Shown here: one piece after another, positions 3,623 to 62,267 of the stretch
Numbering within the stretch: position 1 is the stretch's first letter
How the letters are laid out: the number at the start of each line of letters is the position of its first letter
Assembly (NCBI GenBank): GCA_037128595.1
Contig: JBAXWB010000011.1
Coordinates: 17,714 to 81,713 of the forward strand
Length of the DNA stretch: 64,000 nt
Source: a bacterium
GTDB taxonomy: Bacteria > Verrucomicrobiota > Kiritimatiellia > CAIKKV01 > CAITUY01
Direction of reading: 5' to 3'
Notes under the pieces: model-generated
Databases searched by the model: none
What the model saw: the letters and a program-made list of their open reading frames with translations, nothing else
Told to the model about the DNA's origin: nothing
Made by a program: the position numbers and the translations under genes

Positions 3623-6600
3623 GTGTATTTGAAATCCATTCATATGGTCGGGTTCAAGAGTTTCGCGAATCCCACAACCTTAAATTTTGAACCGGGTATG
3701 ACCGCGATTGTCGGTCCCAATGGCTGCGGCAAAAGCAATGTGTCGGACGCCGTGCGCTGGGTACTGGGTGAGACGAGCGCCAAGGCCCTCCGCGGATCCA
3801 AGATGGAAGATGTCATTTTTAACGGAACCGATACCCGCAAACCCGTGGGCATGGCCGAAGTCAGCATCACCTTTACAGATTGCGAACAAACTCTCGGCAC
3901 CGACTACCATGAAGTCACGGTCACCCGCCGGGTCTTCCGCTCAGGCGAAGGCCAGTATTTCATGAATAAAACCGCCTGCCGACTCAAGGACATCCAGCGG
4001 TTGTTCATGGATACCGGGATCGGCACCTCCTCCTACTCGTTGATGGAACAGGGCCGCATCGACCAGGTCTTGAGCTCCCGTCCCGAGGATCGCCGTGAAA
4101 TTTTCGAGGAAGCCAGCGGAATCACCCGCTTCAAGGCGGACAAAAAGGAAGCCCTGCGGAAACTGGAACAAACCGAGGCCAACCTGCTGCGTCTGGATGA
4201 CGTGGTCCGCGAAGTGAAGCGGCAGATCGGATCGCTTCAACGCCAGGCCGGCAAAGCCCGCCGCTATAAGGAACTGCGCGATCAGCTCCGGATGTTCGAT
4301 GTCTACTGGACGGCACGGAAACTGGAGAAAATGGATGGCGACCTTCAGATGCTCGACACCACCATCACCGAATTGGGTCAGAAAATCCAGGAATTGCACG
4401 AGACCCTGCAGCAGGGCGAAGCACGAGGCACCGAGTGGCGGGACGCCATCATGGAAATCGAGCAGCTGATTGGCGAGACCACCGAGGAACGCGCCACGGC
4501 CCAGACCCGGCTTGAACACAATAATGACCTGATCCGGATCAATCGTGACCGTATTGAGGAGCTCCGCAACCTGGCGGAACGCGACCGGCGCGACAGCGTG
4601 CTCGCCGCCTCCCAGGCCGAACAGCAACGGCTGACCCTGACCGCTCTCAAGGAAAACCTGCTGACCACCATTCAGGAACGGAACGACTCCGAGATCGAAT
4701 GGAACAAGAAGAACGCGGATCTGGCCAGTCATGAAGTTCAGGTCGAAGCCGCCCGCAAGGAAATCCAGACGTTACGCGCCAGCGCCATGGCACTGGACCA
4801 TACCCTCTCGCAACTCCAGAACCAGTTGACCCAGCTCGAAGCCAAGCAGCAGGCGACCATTGTCCAACGCGAGCGCATGGCCGCGGAACATGCCCAGATC
4901 GAACGGGGTGCCGCCGAAACGGAATCCCAGCTCGGCCAGATCGCGGAGCACCTTGGCTCCCTGCAGCAGGAACTTGAAACACGGGAAGGCCGCCTCGAAT
5001 CGCTTCAATCGCTCCGGCACGAAAAAACCACGGAAATCGAGGCCTTACGCAAGGAATGCAGCGAGATTCAGGGGCAATTGGCCGTTAAGAAAGCCCAGAT
5101 CGAGATTCTGGAGGCGGACGAACAGTCGGCCAAGGATTTCCCCGAGGGCGCCCGCCTTGTCATGGACGCCACCAATCCCCTCGGCGTCAACGCCAAGGCG
5201 GTGCTGGGTGCACTGGCCAGCCACATTCAAACGGAACCCGAATACCGGACGGCCCTGGAGTCTGTCCTGCGGGCCTGGCTGGATGCCGTGGTCATTGCCG
5301 ATGCCCCGGATGCCCTAGCGATCCTCAAGGAATTGCAAACGCGCAAGGCCGGGGCGATCCGCCTGCTGGCGGCCAACGCCGCCGCCGCCACTCCCGCCGT
5401 GATTCCCGCCCCACCGGGAGCGCGCCGGTTATTTGACGTCATTACCTGTACCCCGTTCGCCAAACCGGCGGTGGCCCGCTTTCTCGCCAATATCTTTGTA
5501 GTGGACTCAACCGAAGCCATTCCCTCTGAAATTCCAGAAGGCAGCGCGGTCGTCACCCTCGGCGGAGTCGTCGCCCGGGCAGATGGCGCGTTCGAATACT
5601 GGGCCACCGATGCGCGCGCCAGCAACCCCCTGACCCGGCGCCACCAATTAACCGACCTGCATCAGGGGTTGGAAGGCCTTGATGAAGGCCTCGCCCGGCG
5701 CAGCCACGCGGTGGCCTCGCTGGCCGCCGAACTGACCGATCTGAACCGCAATATTGAGGAAGCCACCCAGCAGCTCACCGCCCAACGTCGTGCCGTGGCC
5801 CTGAAGGAAGGTGAATTCCAGATTGTCTCCAATGACGCCCGCCAATCGAAGCAAAAGCTGGAAGTCATGGCCTTTGAACTGGATAAACTCCGCCAGCAGT
5901 CCGGAAATGACACCGAGCGCCAGGGACTCAGCGGCCAGATCGCGGAAGGCCGCGCCAAACAGGCTGACATGCTCCGGCGTCTGGAGGAACTCACTCATTT
6001 GCTCCAGGACCTCGAGGGCCAGCGCAGTGCCTTGCAGGCGGCGGCCACCGAAGCCCGCCTCCGGTTCTCCGAAGCCCGCCAGAAAGCCGAGCACATGGAC
6101 TCACAGCTGGAGCCCATCCAACACCGGCTAGCCGAACTGGATTCCGTTATCAAGTCGCGCTCCGAGGGGCTCGTCCAGTACGAAAAGACCATTGAACAGC
6201 TCACCCATGCGACCGCCGAGGCGGAAAGCCAGCTCTCCACCCTGCAGGCCAACGCCTCCGCCCTGGCAGAGAAACTGGAATTGATCAAGCGCCAGCGCAC
6301 CGACAAGGTCAAGGAACTCTCCGTTCTGGAAGCCGAACTCATGGCCAAGCGGGAGCTCATGGACAAAATCCGGGATCAACGCTCCAAGCTGGAGGTCAAT
6401 AACGCCGAGCACAAGATGCGCCGGCAGAACCTGATCGATCGCGTCACCTCGGAGTGGACGCTGACCCTGGAAGATGTGATGCGTGCGCCCGAACCCCGAC
6501 CGGAGGGAGAAGACGCCCCACCGGTCACGGAAACACCGGCTTACGAGCAGGTCATCGCGGAGGTCCGCACCAAAATCGAGGCGATGGGCCCCGTCAATCT

Positions 6601-34448: not shown

Positions 34449-35675
34449 ATGTGGGCGCGCCTATCGCTGGCGGTACTGGTATGGGGATTCCCGCTGATGG
34501 CCAAGGCGGTTCTGTTCGATGCCACGGGCGATCCCGGTTACAACACCAATGCACCTGCCGGCCCGCTGGAGGGAAGCGGCTGGCAGTTCGAGGGGCAGTT
34601 CGGCGGCTTTCTGGGCACCGCGGTCGACCCGCATTTCTTCCTGACCGCCAAGCACATTAATGGCGACACTAACACCCCGTTTGTTTTTGAAGGGTCCAAC
34701 TACTACCCGATCGCTTCGTTCGTAGATCCCAATCCGGACGTTGACCTCCGTCTCTGGCAGGTCGCAGACCGGCTTCCCCGTTATGCCCCCTGCTATACCG
34801 GGTCAAATGAAGTTGGGAGGGCCCTGATGGTGATTGGGCGGGGCACCCAACGCGGCAGTGAGATCATCACCGAGGGGGTGACCAATGGGTGGCACTGGGG
34901 CCCAGTCGACAGCGTCATGCGGTGGGGAGTGAATCAGGTCGACGCCATCCGGCTTGCCGGCGACGCTCCCTATTTATACGCCACCTTCACTCATGGGGCC
35001 GGTTCCAATGAATGCCACCTGTCAAGCGGTGACTCCGGCGGCGCCGCCTTCATTCAGGAAAATGGCGTCTGGCAATTAGCCGGCATCCATTACTCCGTGG
35101 ATGGCTCGTTCAACACCACCAACATCAGTGACGGAAAGTTCGACGCCAGTCTCTATGATGAGTACGGGCTCTACGTCGAAGACGGGGCTCAGTGGACAGC
35201 GGTTACCAATCATGTCGCCAGCGGATTCTACTCATCACAGGTCTCGGCTCACTATGCCTGGATGGCCAGCGTCATACCCGACTTCGACAGCGACGCCGAC
35301 GGACTTCCTGACTGGTGGGAACAACGGTATACCGGCCAGATCCATGGATTATCTGCCACCAACGATAACGACAACGATGGTCTCAGCAACTACCAGGAAT
35401 GGGTGGCCCGTACCGATCCCACCAATGCCGCCTCGGTGTTTCGTGTTGATGCCTTGCAGTGGTCAAACGGCGTAGCGGTACTGACCTTTCAAGGCTGGTC
35501 AAACCGCCTGTATGGCGTCGAGGCCCGTGAAATTCCGCTCAACACGACTGATATCTGGACCAACATGACCCCCTCCCCATTTGCAGGCGCCGAGGGGCCC
35601 ACCTCATGGAGCGACCCCCATTCCCCCACTTCCCTCACAGGCCGATGCTACAGGTTATGGGTGATTGGGTATTAG
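34449..35675 (+). CDS. secreted trypsin-like (S1 family) serine peptidase with C-terminal Ca-binding-like D-x-D-x-D-G repeats and a beta-rich C-terminal domain
   Basis: Signal peptide. Triad motifs are LTAKHI (His), DVDLRLW (Asp) and GDSGGAAF (Ser). DSDADGLPDWWE and DNDNDGLSNYQEW resemble TSP3/dockerin-type repeats. Start lies 3 nt after the rpoN stop. Confidence 0.7.
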   Translation: MWARLSLAVLVWGFPLMAKAVLFDATGDPGYNTNAPAGPLEGSGWQFEGQFGGFLGTAVDPHFFLTAKHINGDTNTPFVFEGSNYYPIASFVDPNPDVDLRLWQVADRLPRYAPCYTGSNEVGRALMVIGRGTQRGSEIITEGVTNGWHWGPVDSVMRWGVNQVDAIRLAGDAPYLYATFTHGAGSNECHLSSGDSGGAAFIQENGVWQLAGIHYSVDGSFNTTNISDGKFDASLYDEYGLYVEDGAQWTAVTNHVASGFYSSQVSAHYAWMASVIPDFDSDADGLPDWWEQRYTGQIHGLSATNDNDNDGLSNYQEWVARTDPTNAASVFRVDALQWSNGVAVLTFQGWSNRLYGVEAREIPLNTTDIWTNMTPSPFAGAEGPTSWSDPHSPTSLTGRCYRLWVIGY

Positions 35676-35684
35676 GGATGGGGA

Positions 35685-36695
35685 TTATGAACCCTGCGTC
35701 TTGCGGATCAACCCTTCAAGCACATGCCAGGCCGCCCCGCTGTCAATCGTCTTCTGAGCCAAGCGGAAGCCCTCTGCGAAGTCCCGAGCTTTCCCGCCGG
35801 CGATCAGCCCGGCCGCGGCATTCAGGCAGACAATATCCCGCCGGGGGCCCTTCTCACCCTTCAGAATCGCACTCGTGATCACCGCATTCTGTTTAGGATC
35901 CCCGCCGGCCAGGGTTGAAAGATCGGCATAGTCCTCCATCACCGTCAGGGGGTCGAAATTATAGGTCCGGACAGCCCCATCGCGTAGCTCACTGATCCGG
36001 GTCGTACCGGTCACCGTGATTTCATCCATCCCATCCTGCCCATGCACCACAAACACACGCTGACTTCCGAGATGTTTTAGGACTTCGGCAAACATCTCGG
36101 TCAATTGCGGCGCGAACACCCCCAGCACCTGACAACGAGCACCCGCTGGATTGGCCAGCGGCCCCAACAGGTTGAAAATCGTCCTGAAGCCCAGCTCCCT
36201 GCGCGGACCCATGGCATGCTTCATGGCTGGATGCAGTTTCGGCGCAAACAGGAATCCGATCCCCACCTCATGGATACATTCCTCCATGACATCGGGCGAT
36301 ACCTCCAGATTCACGCCCAACTCCGCCAACACATCCGCCGAACCGCATTTGCTGGTGATGGAGCGGTTCCCGTGCTTGGCCACGGGCACCCCGGCCCCGG
36401 CGACCACAAAGGCGGCGGTGGTTGAAATATTGAAGGTGCCCAAAGCGTCTCCGCCCGTCCCGCAGGTATCCACCACCGTCTTGCCGCGGGGATCAATAAA
36501 GACCGCATGCCGTCGCATGGAGGCGCAGGCCCCCGTCAATTCCTCAATGGTTTCGCCCTTGATCCGCAAAGCAGTGAGAAAGGCTCCCAATTGGGCCGGG
36601 GTCGCGTCCCCATCCATGATCCGGTCAAAGGCCGCCACCGTTTCCGGGGTGCTCAGGTTCTGGCCTGCGATCAACTTCTGCAGGACCTCTTTCAC
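35685..36695 (-). CDS. trpD: anthranilate phosphoribosyltransferase
   Basis: GAFLTALRIKGET...VDTCGTGGD signature. Confidence 0.93.
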   Translation of the reverse strand: MKEVLQKLIAGQNLSTPETVAAFDRIMDGDATPAQLGAFLTALRIKGETIEELTGACASMRRHAVFIDPRGKTVVDTCGTGGDALGTFNISTTAAFVVAGAGVPVAKHGNRSITSKCGSADVLAELGVNLEVSPDVMEECIHEVGIGFLFAPKLHPAMKHAMGPRRELGFRTIFNLLGPLANPAGARCQVLGVFAPQLTEMFAEVLKHLGSQRVFVVHGQDGMDEITVTGTTRISELRDGAVRTYNFDPLTVMEDYADLSTLAGGDPKQNAVITSAILKGEKGPRRDIVCLNAAAGLIAGGKARDFAEGFRLAQKTIDSGAAWHVLEGLIRKTQGS

Positions 36696-37279
36696 GACAC
36701 GGCTTTCTTTTCGGCCACAATATCCAGAAAATTCCGCAACAACCGTTTCCCGGTCGGCGTCAAAACGGACTCAGGATGGAACTGGACCCCGTAGGTCGGG
36801 TGCGTCACATGCTGCATCCCCATGATCTCATCGTCCTCACTGAAGGCATTGGCAATCAGTTCAGGCGGCAGCGTCTCTTTCAGAACCGCCAGCGAGTGGT
36901 ACCGCCCCGCCTGAAAGGGGTTGCTCATCCCTTTGAACAGACCCTGTCCATCGTGACGCACTTGCGATACCTTGCCGTGCATAATGCGCTTGGCATTGGA
37001 AACGGTCGCCCCGAAGGCGACCCCCAGCGACTGGTGGCCCAGGCAGACCCCCAGGACCGGGATCCGTCCACTCATCCGCTTGATCAACTCCACGGAAATT
37101 CCGGCCTCTTTGGGCGTACAGGGTCCGGGCGAGACGACCACGGCCTCCGGCTTCAGCGCTTCCACGGCATCCACCGTGATGGCATCGTTCCGGAACACCC
37201 GGATATCCGCACCAATGGCCGCCATCATCTGGACCAGGTTGTAGGTAAAGGAATCGTAATTATCGATTAATATAATCAT
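36692..37279 (-). CDS. trpG: anthranilate synthase component II / glutamine amidotransferase
   Basis: MIILIDNYDSFTYNL and the class I GATase triad region. 4-nt overlaps on both sides. Confidence 0.9.
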   Translation of the reverse strand: MIILIDNYDSFTYNLVQMMAAIGADIRVFRNDAITVDAVEALKPEAVVVSPGPCTPKEAGISVELIKRMSGRIPVLGVCLGHQSLGVAFGATVSNAKRIMHGKVSQVRHDGQGLFKGMSNPFQAGRYHSLAVLKETLPPELIANAFSEDDEIMGMQHVTHPTYGVQFHPESVLTPTGKRLLRNFLDIVAEKKAVS

Positions 37280-38730
37280 ACCACCTCTCCCTCCAGCTCA
37301 AGCGCCCGGGCCGCCAGTTGCACGGCCTTCTGCATGCCCCGCGCCTTGTGGCAGGTTTCCTGATATTCCTTCACCGGGTCAGAATCATGGACAATGCCGG
37401 CACCCGACTGAATCGCGACGGTCCCTCCCTCCAGCTCCAAGGTCCGGATGGTGATCGCCAGGTCCATATTGCCATCATACCCCACATACCCCACGGCCCC
37501 ACCATACGCCCCGCGCGGCCCGGGCTCCAACTCATGGATGATCTCCATGGCGCGGATCTTCGGGGCACCGGACAGGGTCCCCGCCGGGAACGTGGCTCGA
37601 ATCACATCGTAGGCGTCGAATTCCTTCCGCAATACTCCCTGGACGTGCGACACCAGATGCATCACATGGCTGTAACGCTCGATGACCATATAATCCGTCA
37701 CCTGCACGCTGCCCATCTCCGAAAGCCGGCCGATATCATTACGCCCGAGATCCACCAGCATGACATGTTCCGCCCGTTCTTTCTCGTCCGAGAGCAATTC
37801 ATCCGCCAGGGCCCGATCCTCGGCATCGTCCTTCCCGCGGGGACGCGTTCCGGCAATGGGTCGCAACTCCACGCGACTGCCGGTCAGGCGTACCATGACT
37901 TCAGGAGATGACCCCACCAGGGTCTGGCTTCCCAGTTTCAGGAAAAACGTATAGGGCGAAGGATTCAACAGCCGCAGAGCGCGATACAGATCCAGGGGCG
38001 GCAGGTCGACCGTGGCGCAGAACCGCTGGCTTAGGACGACCTGAATGATGTCGCCGGCCGTGATATACTCCTTTGCCCGCTTGACCATCCCGCAAAACTG
38101 ATCCTGCGTCAGGTTCGATTCAAAGGCCACTTCGCCCGCACTCCGCCGGCTCACCGGCCGTGCCATCGGCTGGTTCAGGGTATGTTCAATCCCTTCAATT
38201 TCCGAAACGGCACGCCGATAGGCCGCCTCCGGCGTAGGAGATTCGGACGGTCGGGTGCAGACAACGATCTTGATCGTGTGGCGGATATTATCGAATACAA
38301 TCATCCGGTCCGCCTGAACGAACCGGCTGCGCAGCCGCATTCCCGGCCGGCCTTCCTTGGGCGCGGGCATGCGTTCAAACTCCCCCATCGCCTCGTAGCC
38401 GATGAATCCCACGGCCCCCCCGATAAAGCGGGGAAGCCCCGGAACCGCCGCCACCCGGACCCCCTTGAAGATCCGCCGGATCTCCTCCAGCCCTTTTCCC
38501 GGTTGCCGGTGGTCCACTTCCAGGAACGGACGCGGATCAATCCCGACAAAGGAATACCGTCCCCATTTTTCGCCGCCCTCCATACTTTCCAGGAGAAAGA
38601 CGTTCTCCCGGTTCATGAAACGCTGCAGCACGGAGACCGGAGTCTCCGTGTCAGCGAGGACTTCCTTGTACACCGGCACGATGTCATAGGCCCGCGCCAG
38701 TCCGGCATAATCTTTTTCATTGGGATACAT
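37276..38730 (-). CDS. trpE: anthranilate synthase component I
   Basis: Chorismate-binding enzyme signatures are present. Start is chosen at MYPNEKDYAGLA. The ORF-track start is 34 codons longer and would run into the leader repeats. Confidence 0.9.
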   Translation of the reverse strand: MYPNEKDYAGLARAYDIVPVYKEVLADTETPVSVLQRFMNRENVFLLESMEGGEKWGRYSFVGIDPRPFLEVDHRQPGKGLEEIRRIFKGVRVAAVPGLPRFIGGAVGFIGYEAMGEFERMPAPKEGRPGMRLRSRFVQADRMIVFDNIRHTIKIVVCTRPSESPTPEAAYRRAVSEIEGIEHTLNQPMARPVSRRSAGEVAFESNLTQDQFCGMVKRAKEYITAGDIIQVVLSQRFCATVDLPPLDLYRALRLLNPSPYTFFLKLGSQTLVGSSPEVMVRLTGSRVELRPIAGTRPRGKDDAEDRALADELLSDEKERAEHVMLVDLGRNDIGRLSEMGSVQVTDYMVIERYSHVMHLVSHVQGVLRKEFDAYDVIRATFPAGTLSGAPKIRAMEIIHELEPGPRGAYGGAVGYVGYDGNMDLAITIRTLELEGGTVAIQSGAGIVHDSDPVKEYQETCHKARGMQKAVQLAARALELEGEVV

Positions 38731-38733
38731 AAT

Positions 38734-38751
38734 GTTTCTATGTATAGAAAC
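38734..38751. promoter_or_regulatory. 18-bp perfect palindrome GTTTCTATgtATAGAAAC lying between -4 and -21 of the trpE start codon (candidate operator / RBS-sequestering hairpin)
   Basis: Seen directly: 8-bp arms with a 2-nt centre, covering the position where the trpE SD should be. Confidence 0.5.
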
Positions 38752-38824
38752 AACCGCGAGGAAAGTCAAAGAAAAAATCAGCACCCCCTGCCCACCCTGG
38801 CCTCCATAGCCTTGGCGACGGAGG

Positions 38825-38860
38825 CTGCTCACTGCCTACTGCCCACTGCCCACTGGCTTC
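38825..38860 (-). repeat. tandem heptad repeat array (CAGTGGG-CAGTGGG-CAGTAGG-CAGTGAG-CAG) in the trp leader; same family as 62186-62267
   Basis: Direct reading of the minus strand. It shares the flanking GAAGC (plus cactggcttc) with the second locus. Confidence 0.7.
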
Positions 38861-38862
38861 CC

Positions 38863-39282
38863 TCACGGCTCCTTCATGGAGGCCACCCGGCCGGGGAAAT
38901 TCTGGGACAACGCGTCAACCAAAGCGCGATGGAACTGCTGGTAATATTCCCGGCTGTCCAGACCGCGGGTTAACGGCATCAAATGCACCGCGATTCTGCC
39001 GCTGGTCCGCTTGGCATAAAAGGCGATGGTCAAACTCGGGGTCGGCTGATAATAGCGGATGATATCCAGATCGCTCGGCTTGGTTTTGGACATTTGGTAG
39101 GTGGTGGCCACCCGATCCAGCACCTCCTTGAGGCGCGTCTCATCCGCATCCGTCACCTTGGGCTCGCCCGCCGCAGGATAGATGAGATAATAGGCGATTT
39201 TCGGCCTTTCGCCGCATCCGGCAAGCAGCGCCAACGCGCACACCACCACACTCAGTCTAGCCAGTTTAGAAAAAAGACGCAT
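38863..39282 (-). CDS. hypothetical lipoprotein
   Basis: Start at MRLFSKLARLSVVVCALALLAGC (lipobox LAGC). No family recognised. Confidence 0.55.
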   Translation of the reverse strand: MRLFSKLARLSVVVCALALLAGCGERPKIAYYLIYPAAGEPKVTDADETRLKEVLDRVATTYQMSKTKPSDLDIIRYYQPTPSLTIAFYAKRTSGRIAVHLMPLTRGLDSREYYQQFHRALVDALSQNFPGRVASMKEP

Positions 39283-39457
39283 GCTCAGCCTCCTCTGCAT
39301 CCCGGATTCAGTCCACCACCCTTCGCGGTGATCCATCCGGTATTACGGGCCCGATGCTAACAACCCACCGGAAAGAAAGAAATGCCATTTATTGACAACA
39401 ACCGATTCCGCAATAGAGCGAAGCACAGGTGGCGGCCGACGTCCCGGCGGCTGCAGG

Positions 39458-62203: not shown

Positions 62204-62267
62204 GCAGATACCAAATTCTACCCACTGTCTACTGCCCACTGCTTACTGCCCACTGCTCACTGGCTTC
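62186..62267. repeat. heptad-repeat element: 2.4 CAGTRRG units on the plus strand (62190-62207) facing 6 units on the minus strand (62221-62262); forms a 17/18-bp hairpin between convergent genes
   Basis: Direct reading. Plus 62190-62207 pairs with 62232-62249. It shares cactggcttc with the 38825-38860 locus. Confidence 0.7.

Follow-up and report, generated by a model that had tools for sequence, protein, structure and literature searches.

The trp operator of Escherichia coli is centred on the -10 element of a TTGACA-17-TTAACT promoter, and the operon has a long leader containing trpL. In this study we analysed a stretch of 64,000 nucleotides (hereafter the 64-kb window) from contig JBAXWB010000011.1 of a bacterium of the Kiritimatiellia (Verrucomicrobiota), which carries a trpEGD operon with a 20-bp inverted repeat directly in front of trpE. 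This palindrome is most likely the operator of a TrpR-family repressor and lies on trpE's own promoter, an assignment that we base on comparative sequence data. It resembles the E. coli operator recognized by TrpR (PF01371; PDB 1TRO and 1TRR) in its length of about 20 bp, its TGT...ACA ends, its place over a putative -10 element, the TTGACA-type -35 box and the 17-bp spacer. The half-site, however, is TGTTTCTAT here and TGTACTAGT in E. coli. The gammaproteobacterial consensus TGTAcTnGTnnACnAgTACA is not matched beyond its length and the outer TGT/ACA, the inner half-site being TTCTAT instead of ACTAGT. In addition, no trpL attenuator is found downstream of the Kiritimatiellia palindrome, and there would be essentially no leader.

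Other described systems share part of these features. HisR (YerC/YecD) of Firmicutes is also a small PF01371 protein with a lineage-specific 20-bp palindrome over biosynthetic promoters; TrpR and HisR family operators are known as 20-bp palindromes with a lineage-specific consensus, often with autoregulation (PMC9413887). However, HisR has the consensus cacTTTAnnnnnnTAAAgtg and controls his genes, whereas the palindrome described here has neighbours from the tryptophan and aromatic pathways, and the TrpR homologues of related genomes score higher on the NCBIfam TrpR model than on YerC/YecD. The attenuators of Proteobacteria contain, like the region in front of the present trpE, a short open reading frame (ORF) with Trp codons. 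Unlike trpL, the ORF in the window has no tandem Trp codons and no terminator/antiterminator pair between it and trpE, is not conserved, and lies upstream of the predicted promoter. Finally, the leaderless mRNAs of Actinobacteria, Deinococcus and the 'TA-led' genes have a -10-like TA element 7-10 nt before the start codon and no Shine-Dalgarno sequence. A TA-like signal about 10-12 nt (-10-like, about 7-12 nt) before a start codon that lacks a Shine-Dalgarno sequence is regarded as the mark of leaderless genes (PMC3160421). The trpE gene of the window shows this signature, with a -10-like element upstream of its start codon and no Shine-Dalgarno sequence.

The initial annotation of this DNA had reported a perfect 18-bp palindrome replacing the Shine-Dalgarno sequence of trpE. 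The 18-mer, GTTTCTATGTATAGAAAC, is indeed located at -4 to -21 from the trpE ATG (38734-38751), but it is not perfect, as the central AC/GT is not self-complementary and 16 of the 18 positions are symmetric. The symmetry reaches one base further on each side, giving an element of 20 bp with 18 symmetric positions. The absence of a Shine-Dalgarno sequence at trpE, with the palindrome in its place, was confirmed; trpG (GGAGGGAGAGG) and the phosphoglucomutase gene (AAGGAG) each have one. The palindrome pattern matched the 64-kb window once at up to 3 mismatches (0.09 matches expected) and was likewise the sole match at up to 3 of 16 arm positions. When up to 5 of 16 mismatches were allowed, the additional sites in the window were all chance-like, and none of them preceded a trp gene.

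We compared the 160 nt 5' of trpE with the same region of 29 relatives (30 sequences including the window). The relatives come from about 30 contigs of metagenome-assembled genomes (MAGs) labelled Kiritimatiellia, Verrucomicrobia or Lentisphaerota, with TrpE sequences 66-96% identical to that of the window, the value of 96% being reached by a Kiritimatiellia MAG; individual loci are designated below by L numbers. Conservation of the palindrome in orthologous leaders had been named in advance as a check, and the palindrome was found to be kept there: the 14 closest relatives (L001-L014, TrpE identity 80-96%) all have an unchanged 20-mer despite unrelated upstream DNA, and L024 and L028 have it with 1 mismatch. 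It occurs in a single copy per relative locus of about 9 kb. Distant relatives (TrpE identity 66-71%) have lost the palindrome and retain TTGACC-17-TATA(C/G)N, with the ATG following after 6-8 nt. In L024 (TrpE identity 70%), the palindrome (3927-3946) is positioned 7 nt upstream of the -35 box rather than over the -10 element. It is therefore located outside any trpE transcript, suggesting a function at the DNA level rather than the RNA level.

Two relatives without the TGTTTC palindrome have other inverted repeats around the same -10 element, about 10-30 nt before the trpE start, namely CGTAC-N8-GTACG in L025 and AGCGTA-N4-TACGCT in L026. These may reflect operator turnover with a different repressor specificity.

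Public metagenome contigs were scanned for exact copies of TGTTTCTATNNATAGAAACA, and at least 120 copies were found in very different habitats. The counts given here are those among the 120 matches listed. The first ORF downstream, at a distance of no more than 200 nt, was in 62 cases a gene of tryptophan biosynthesis, of 3-deoxy-D-arabino-heptulosonate 7-phosphate (DAHP) synthase or of the TrpR family (25 TrpE, 21 TrpR, 8 TrpB, 6 TrpD and 2 DAHP synthase). A Pfam search of the 145 distinct first flanking ORFs on both sides identified 24 Anth_synt_I_N, 21 Trp_repressor (PF01371), 20 Chorismate_bind, 6 TrpD, 6 PALP (TrpB) and 2 class-II DAHP synthase domains. By chance, a single-copy trpR gene would be expected next to these copies about 0.1 times, compared with 21 times observed. 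A TTGACA box precedes many of the copies by 9-15 nt, and the start of the following gene is often located -1 to +7 nt after the palindrome. Copies before trp genes and before trpR genes form the pattern of a TrpR regulon with an autoregulated repressor. Such a core of trpR and trpE has been described for Proteobacteria, and the present set agrees with that of E. coli TrpR also in its further targets trpB, trpD and DAHP synthase (PMC5343134). A repressor operator, which the initial annotation had offered as its fallback, is thus strongly favoured by the exact copies elsewhere. A literature search for the motif string retrieved influenza primers and unrelated work but no paper with this consensus, curated regulon databases being outside that search, and no comparable operator sequence was found in the Chlamydia TrpR literature.

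Other listed copies are found beside genes of different function, including an ATP-binding cassette (ABC) substrate-binding protein (L103 and L114), the quinolinate synthase NadA (L085), a Gp49 protein, and a fructose-1,6-bisphosphatase (FBPase) that is divergent from trpE (L082 and L176). The ABC substrate-binding protein, NadA and others are possible extra regulon members, for uptake and for synthesis of nicotinamide adenine dinucleotide (NAD), in other lineages.

Two relatives with an operator identical to that of the window (L006 and L007; TrpE identity 86-87%) encode a TrpR-family protein of 110 aa, whose gene lies 3.2 kb 5' of trpE (gene order hypothetical-trpR-ileS-trpE). The cluster rsmE-hypothetical-trpR-ileS is present on many other related MAG contigs. 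This protein passed the Pfam PF01371 threshold (64 bits vs 27), matched the E. coli Trp repressor structures with E = 3e-7, and had 212 homologues. Several of these, including one of a Verrucomicrobia MAG, bear the source annotation of trp operon repressor. The protein can be aligned with E. coli TrpR, and no variation was seen at the equivalents of T44, R54, R84 and G85 in an alignment with 13 TrpR-like proteins encoded directly behind exact palindrome copies. In E. coli TrpR, these four residues contact tryptophan. Unlike the E. coli protein, in which the recognition helix starts with GIATITRGS, the aligned proteins have SLCK(I/V)TRG(S/A) at this position, an alteration that would fit the changed half-site. 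In a Verrucomicrobia MAG (L203:1168-1187 and L204:1150-1169), a degenerate operator with 3 mismatches, TGTTTCTATGCATAATAACC, precedes a trpR-trpB operon (TrpB being a PALP protein of 456 aa) and is located just after the TAGAAT of a TTGCAT-17-TAGAAT promoter.

The palindrome is part of a conserved arrangement in front of trpE. The pattern TTGACN-17 bp-TATANN-(6-10 nt)-ATG is kept in 23 of the 30 sequences, while further 5' the DNA diverges completely within tens of bases into different genes, repeats and even tRNA-like sequence. In the window the spacing is TTGACT, 17 bp, TATACA, 10 nt, ATG. The gap between the -10 element and the ATG is exactly 7 nt in 10 relatives and 6 or 8 nt in two more. 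The final base of the palindrome, A38733, is the equivalent of the A of the ATG in the relatives with a 7-nt gap. We therefore infer the transcription start at this base, which would give an mRNA beginning with 5'-AUUAUG. The triplet 38731-38733, for which L028 was also compared, is ATG in L009 and L012-L014 (ATGATG, ATGACA...) and ATT or ATC, followed by ATG, in the clade of the window. As a separate observation, the first two bases of the triplet at the predicted start are set by the extended operator arm (GAAACAT).

The conserved promoter geometry points to a leaderless trpE mRNA or one with a 3-nt leader, which would explain the absence of a Shine-Dalgarno sequence. That the mRNA has at most 3 untranslated bases seems somewhat more probable than the opposite. 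The 135 bases before trpE would then consist of the 3' end of the upstream gene and a promoter, rather than an mRNA leader; for this operator and promoter interpretation as a whole our confidence is high.

According to the proposed mechanism, a TrpR-family repressor of a divergent subfamily with the recognition helix SLCK(I/V)TRGS, for which this genome would presumably contain a trpR gene, would bind the 20-bp repeat. When tryptophan, the presumed co-repressor, is plentiful, the tryptophan-bound dimer would cover the -10 element and the start site and block RNA polymerase, as TrpR does at the trp promoter of E. coli. When tryptophan is scarce, transcription of trpEGD would begin at or beside the terminal base of the palindrome and yield an mRNA with zero to about 3 untranslated bases. 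This would leave no room for attenuation, and trpE would accordingly lack a Shine-Dalgarno sequence. The design is most likely a classical repressor-operator control with a lineage-specific motif in a little-studied phylum. A wider proposal, which we put forward tentatively and hold to be somewhat less likely than its opposite, is that the consensus TGTTTCTAT-N2-ATAGAAACA belongs to an undescribed, widespread TrpR subfamily in which the operator supplies the -10 element and ends at the start, the controlled genes (trpE in Kiritimatiellia and many trpR genes elsewhere) being leaderless or nearly so. If this is true, promoter, operator and translation start are fused into about 40 bp that leave no space for attenuation.

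The upstream gene ends in an array of GGCAGTG heptads and an imperfect G+C-rich hairpin with a U-tract (Table 1). With modest confidence, the hairpin and U-tract may be a terminator-like end of the upstream gene and/or a T-tract just 5' of the -35 box. Stronger equivalent hairpins, followed by T-runs just 5' of the trpE promoter, were found in L002 (z = -3.1) and L089 (z = -5.4). The heptad repeat is present in L001, L002 and L089 (L002:90-180; L089:5080-5170), and the window contains 9 matches to GGCAGTG arrays compared with 1.9 expected. The arrays directly follow stop codons. A second array of the window (62224-62264), located after a different gene, pairs with an inverted copy of itself and is followed by a T-rich run, as are the paired arrays of L002 and L089. 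Given this second array and the repeat hairpins of the relatives, we assign the heptad repeat to the 3' end of the preceding gene, as a dispersed, non-coding element. The arrays look like a lineage-specific family of repeat-built terminators or elements resembling repetitive extragenic palindromic (REP) sequences.

These observations bear on the regulation that the initial annotation had envisaged, in which a transcribed leader contains an upstream ORF whose translation, proceeding to a TAG in the palindrome and paced by charged tRNA-Trp, controls trpE through coupling, occlusion or hairpin opening. The ORF exists as described, with 42 codons, a GTG that overlaps the TGA of the upstream gene and follows AAGGAG, and three TGG codons; its TAG and the trpE ATG are 7 nt apart. 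An RNA fold of the palindrome is possible (-5.9 to -8 kcal/mol), and in L001 and L002, which carry the heptad repeat like the window, the frame is open with 4 and 3 Trp codons, respectively. However, no other palindrome-keeping relative reaches three Trp codons. Of these 19 relatives, 7 have no start codon or no ORF in this frame, and the others have ORFs of 14-78 codons that encode unrelated peptides, mostly with 0-1 Trp. The proposed check on conservation of the frame thus went against the upstream ORF in most relatives, the frame being missing in 7 of 19; on the narrower set of relatives that keep the repeat, L001 and L002, the frame is open and the check does not refute it. A 7-nt GGCAGTG repeat cycles through the three frames, has no stop and contains TGG, so that an open Trp-containing frame is automatic. 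The Trp codon of the array comes free with a repeat that also follows an unrelated gene at 62224-62264. The three Trp codons had been ascribed to CAGTGGG repeats; this holds for the first TGG, which is in the heptad array, but the other two are in the 3' half of the following hairpin. The Trp residues are dispersed (positions 8, 21 and 25) with no two side by side, the residues shared with relatives (FDF...CFYT) are the translated -35 box and operator only, and the AAGGAG falls within the coding sequence of the upstream gene. Most of the ORF lies upstream of the conserved -35 and -10 elements, and the terminator-like hairpin with its U-tract is inside it. Therefore, trpE transcripts are not expected to carry the ORF. 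None of the features of trpL-type attenuation (consecutive Trp codons, alternative terminator/antiterminator structures, a conserved leader ORF) was found. In agreement with the initial annotation, there is no canonical attenuator terminator, as no U-run follows the palindrome and the sole hairpin with a U-tract is the one inside the ORF and upstream of the promoter. Rfam gave no match (T-box, riboswitch or trp leader) over the whole window at the gathering score, and at E values up to 1 over 38500-39100 it gave only a spurious nuclear RNase P match of 13.9 bits. Sensing of Trp-tRNA through this ORF is thus scarcely credible. Control of the type exerted by TRAP, a protein of Bacilli, was also considered and rejected, as no more than two or three (G/U)AG triplets with heptad spacing occur in the region.

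The palindrome might also act in RNA, on longer or read-through transcripts, as a hairpin that masks the start or as a processing or stability element, with no DNA-binding protein involved. A hairpin is present in the predicted 151-nt fold, and read-through transcripts must exist in L003, in which 12 nt separate the end of the upstream gene from the -35 box and no terminator is present. However, the stem is weak and A+U-rich (-5.9 kcal/mol), and its arms never vary, so that covariation speaks neither for nor against it. The L024 element upstream of the -35 box argues against an RNA function, as do the metagenome copies, which are located between TTGACA boxes and the start codons of many genes and co-occur with a DNA-binding repressor family. 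With the predicted start, moreover, the transcript would include no more than the final one or two bases of the palindrome. We regard a role in RNA as very improbable. It is less improbable, though still unlikely, that the palindrome is an operator for a regulator outside the TrpR family, or for a member of that family with a different ligand. HisR, of the same family, senses another amino acid (PMC9413887), the window lacks trpR, the homologues score below the TrpR equivalog cut-off, and some copies flank the unrelated FBPase, NadA, ABC substrate-binding protein and Gp49 genes. On the other hand, 21 of the 120 listed copies directly precede a PF01371 gene, as is typical of autoregulation in this family, and a 20-bp palindrome with TGT...ACA ends is the operator format of the family. 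As for the ligand, the enriched neighbours are trpE, trpD, trpB and DAHP synthase and not his genes, and the subfamily shows no variation at the equivalents of T44, R54, R84 and G85.

Several observations weigh against a TrpR-family operator on a near-leaderless trpE promoter. A tblastn search of the 64-kb window, for which E. coli TrpR and 20 TrpR-like proteins served as queries, found no PF01371/TrpR gene, and a trpR gene in this genome is presumed from the relatives. The homologues of the relatives scored 46-61 bits on NCBIfam TIGR01321 (TrpR, their best-scoring family) and thus fell below the equivalog cut-off of 67.25, in which they differ from E. coli TrpR; tryptophan is therefore a presumed effector, and HisR of the same family senses histidine. 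No operator copy was found upstream of trpR in L006, L007, L201, L202, L206 and L207, so that the trpR of the nearest relatives, unlike that of E. coli, is not visibly autoregulated. About half of the listed metagenome copies have no trp-related first neighbour. With respect to the promoter, TATACA lacks the usually invariant final T, as opposed to the hexamers of leaderless genes. A generic promoter and terminator scan of 38400-39400 called nothing, its rule requiring a T at the last -10 position and a loop of 3-8 nt and thus being blind to TATACA and to a long imperfect hairpin. In the clade of the window the ATG is 10 nt past the -10 hexamer and not 7 nt, so that a 3-nt leader and not a strictly leaderless mRNA is predicted, and a 3-nt leader would be unusual for efficient initiation of the leaderless type. 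Neither IleS nor the hypothetical protein, whose genes are the neighbours of trpR in the relatives, was found in the 64-kb window.

The operator and promoter interpretation sets aside a new mechanism of Trp sensing by an upstream ORF and puts a conventional, testable reading in its place; the principle of tryptophan regulation is unchanged by it. The motif and promoter model described here may be the first concrete ones for a transcription factor of Kiritimatiellia-type bacteria, a group for which knowledge comes almost entirely from metagenomes. With the operator of the putative divergent TrpR subfamily, the trp regulons of many uncultured lineages could be predicted. Operator, -10 element and start codon, which are apparently fused, would form a compact case of repression on a leaderless gene.

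Table 1 Features of the trpEGD locus and its upstream region (positions in the 64-kb window)
Feature	Position	Strand	Basis or remark
20-bp inverted repeat TGTTTCTAT-AC-ATAGAAACA (minus-strand reading), proposed TrpR-family operator	38733..38752		9-bp arms, 2-bp centre
-35 box TTGACT of the predicted trpE promoter	38764..38769	-	TTGACN exactly 17 bp before TATANN in 23/30 sequences
-10-like hexamer TATACA, palindrome positions 7-12	38741..38746	-	Predicted from comparative geometry
Predicted transcription start, 7th-8th nt after -10	38733..38734	-	Geometry; 5'-AUUAUG or similar, 3-4 nt leader
42-codon mechanical ORF, judged no gene	38738..38866	-	GTG 38866 to TAG 38738
GGCAGTG heptad repeat, period 7, 4.4 copies	38825..38855	-	Tandem Repeats Finder (TRF)
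Imperfect G+C-rich hairpin (38780-38829) and U6 (38772-38777)	38772..38829	-	Fold -29 kcal/mol, z = -1.7
trpE (anthranilate synthase component I), 484 aa	37276..38730	-	Pfam PF00425/PF04715; ATG 38730-38728
trpG (glutamine amidotransferase)	36692..37279	-	Pfam; start overlaps trpE stop; own Shine-Dalgarno sequence
trpD (anthranilate phosphoribosyltransferase), last operon gene	35685..36695	-	Pfam
Upstream gene, lipoprotein-like	38863..39336	-	Signal peptide ending ...LLAGCG

The TrpE N-terminus (MYPNE...) can be aligned with those of the relatives from residue 1. A longer trpE ORF of 518 aa starting at GTG 38832 (37276-38832, minus strand) was rejected, as its 34 extra codons are not conserved and their conserved part is the translated operator. 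These 34 codons cross the hairpin, the promoter and the operator, and automatic annotation could mis-call the start. No other trp or DAHP synthase gene was found in the 64-kb window beyond trpEGD. On its 3' side, trpD faces the end of a plus-strand gene with TSP3 repeats (34449-35675), which itself follows rpoN.

The lipoprotein-like gene upstream of trpE matched no Pfam family, and only L001 and L003 among the relatives have it before trpE. Its start is probably the second ATG (MRLFSKLARL..., preceded by AGGAGG; region 39282-39336, minus strand) and not 39336. In L010 and L011, the region 60-160 nt upstream of trpE contains 2-3 copies of a unit of about 28 nt with an internal hairpin, CACCCGTGACGCGAGGTCACGGGGATCG, which is another REP-like repeat family in the clade.

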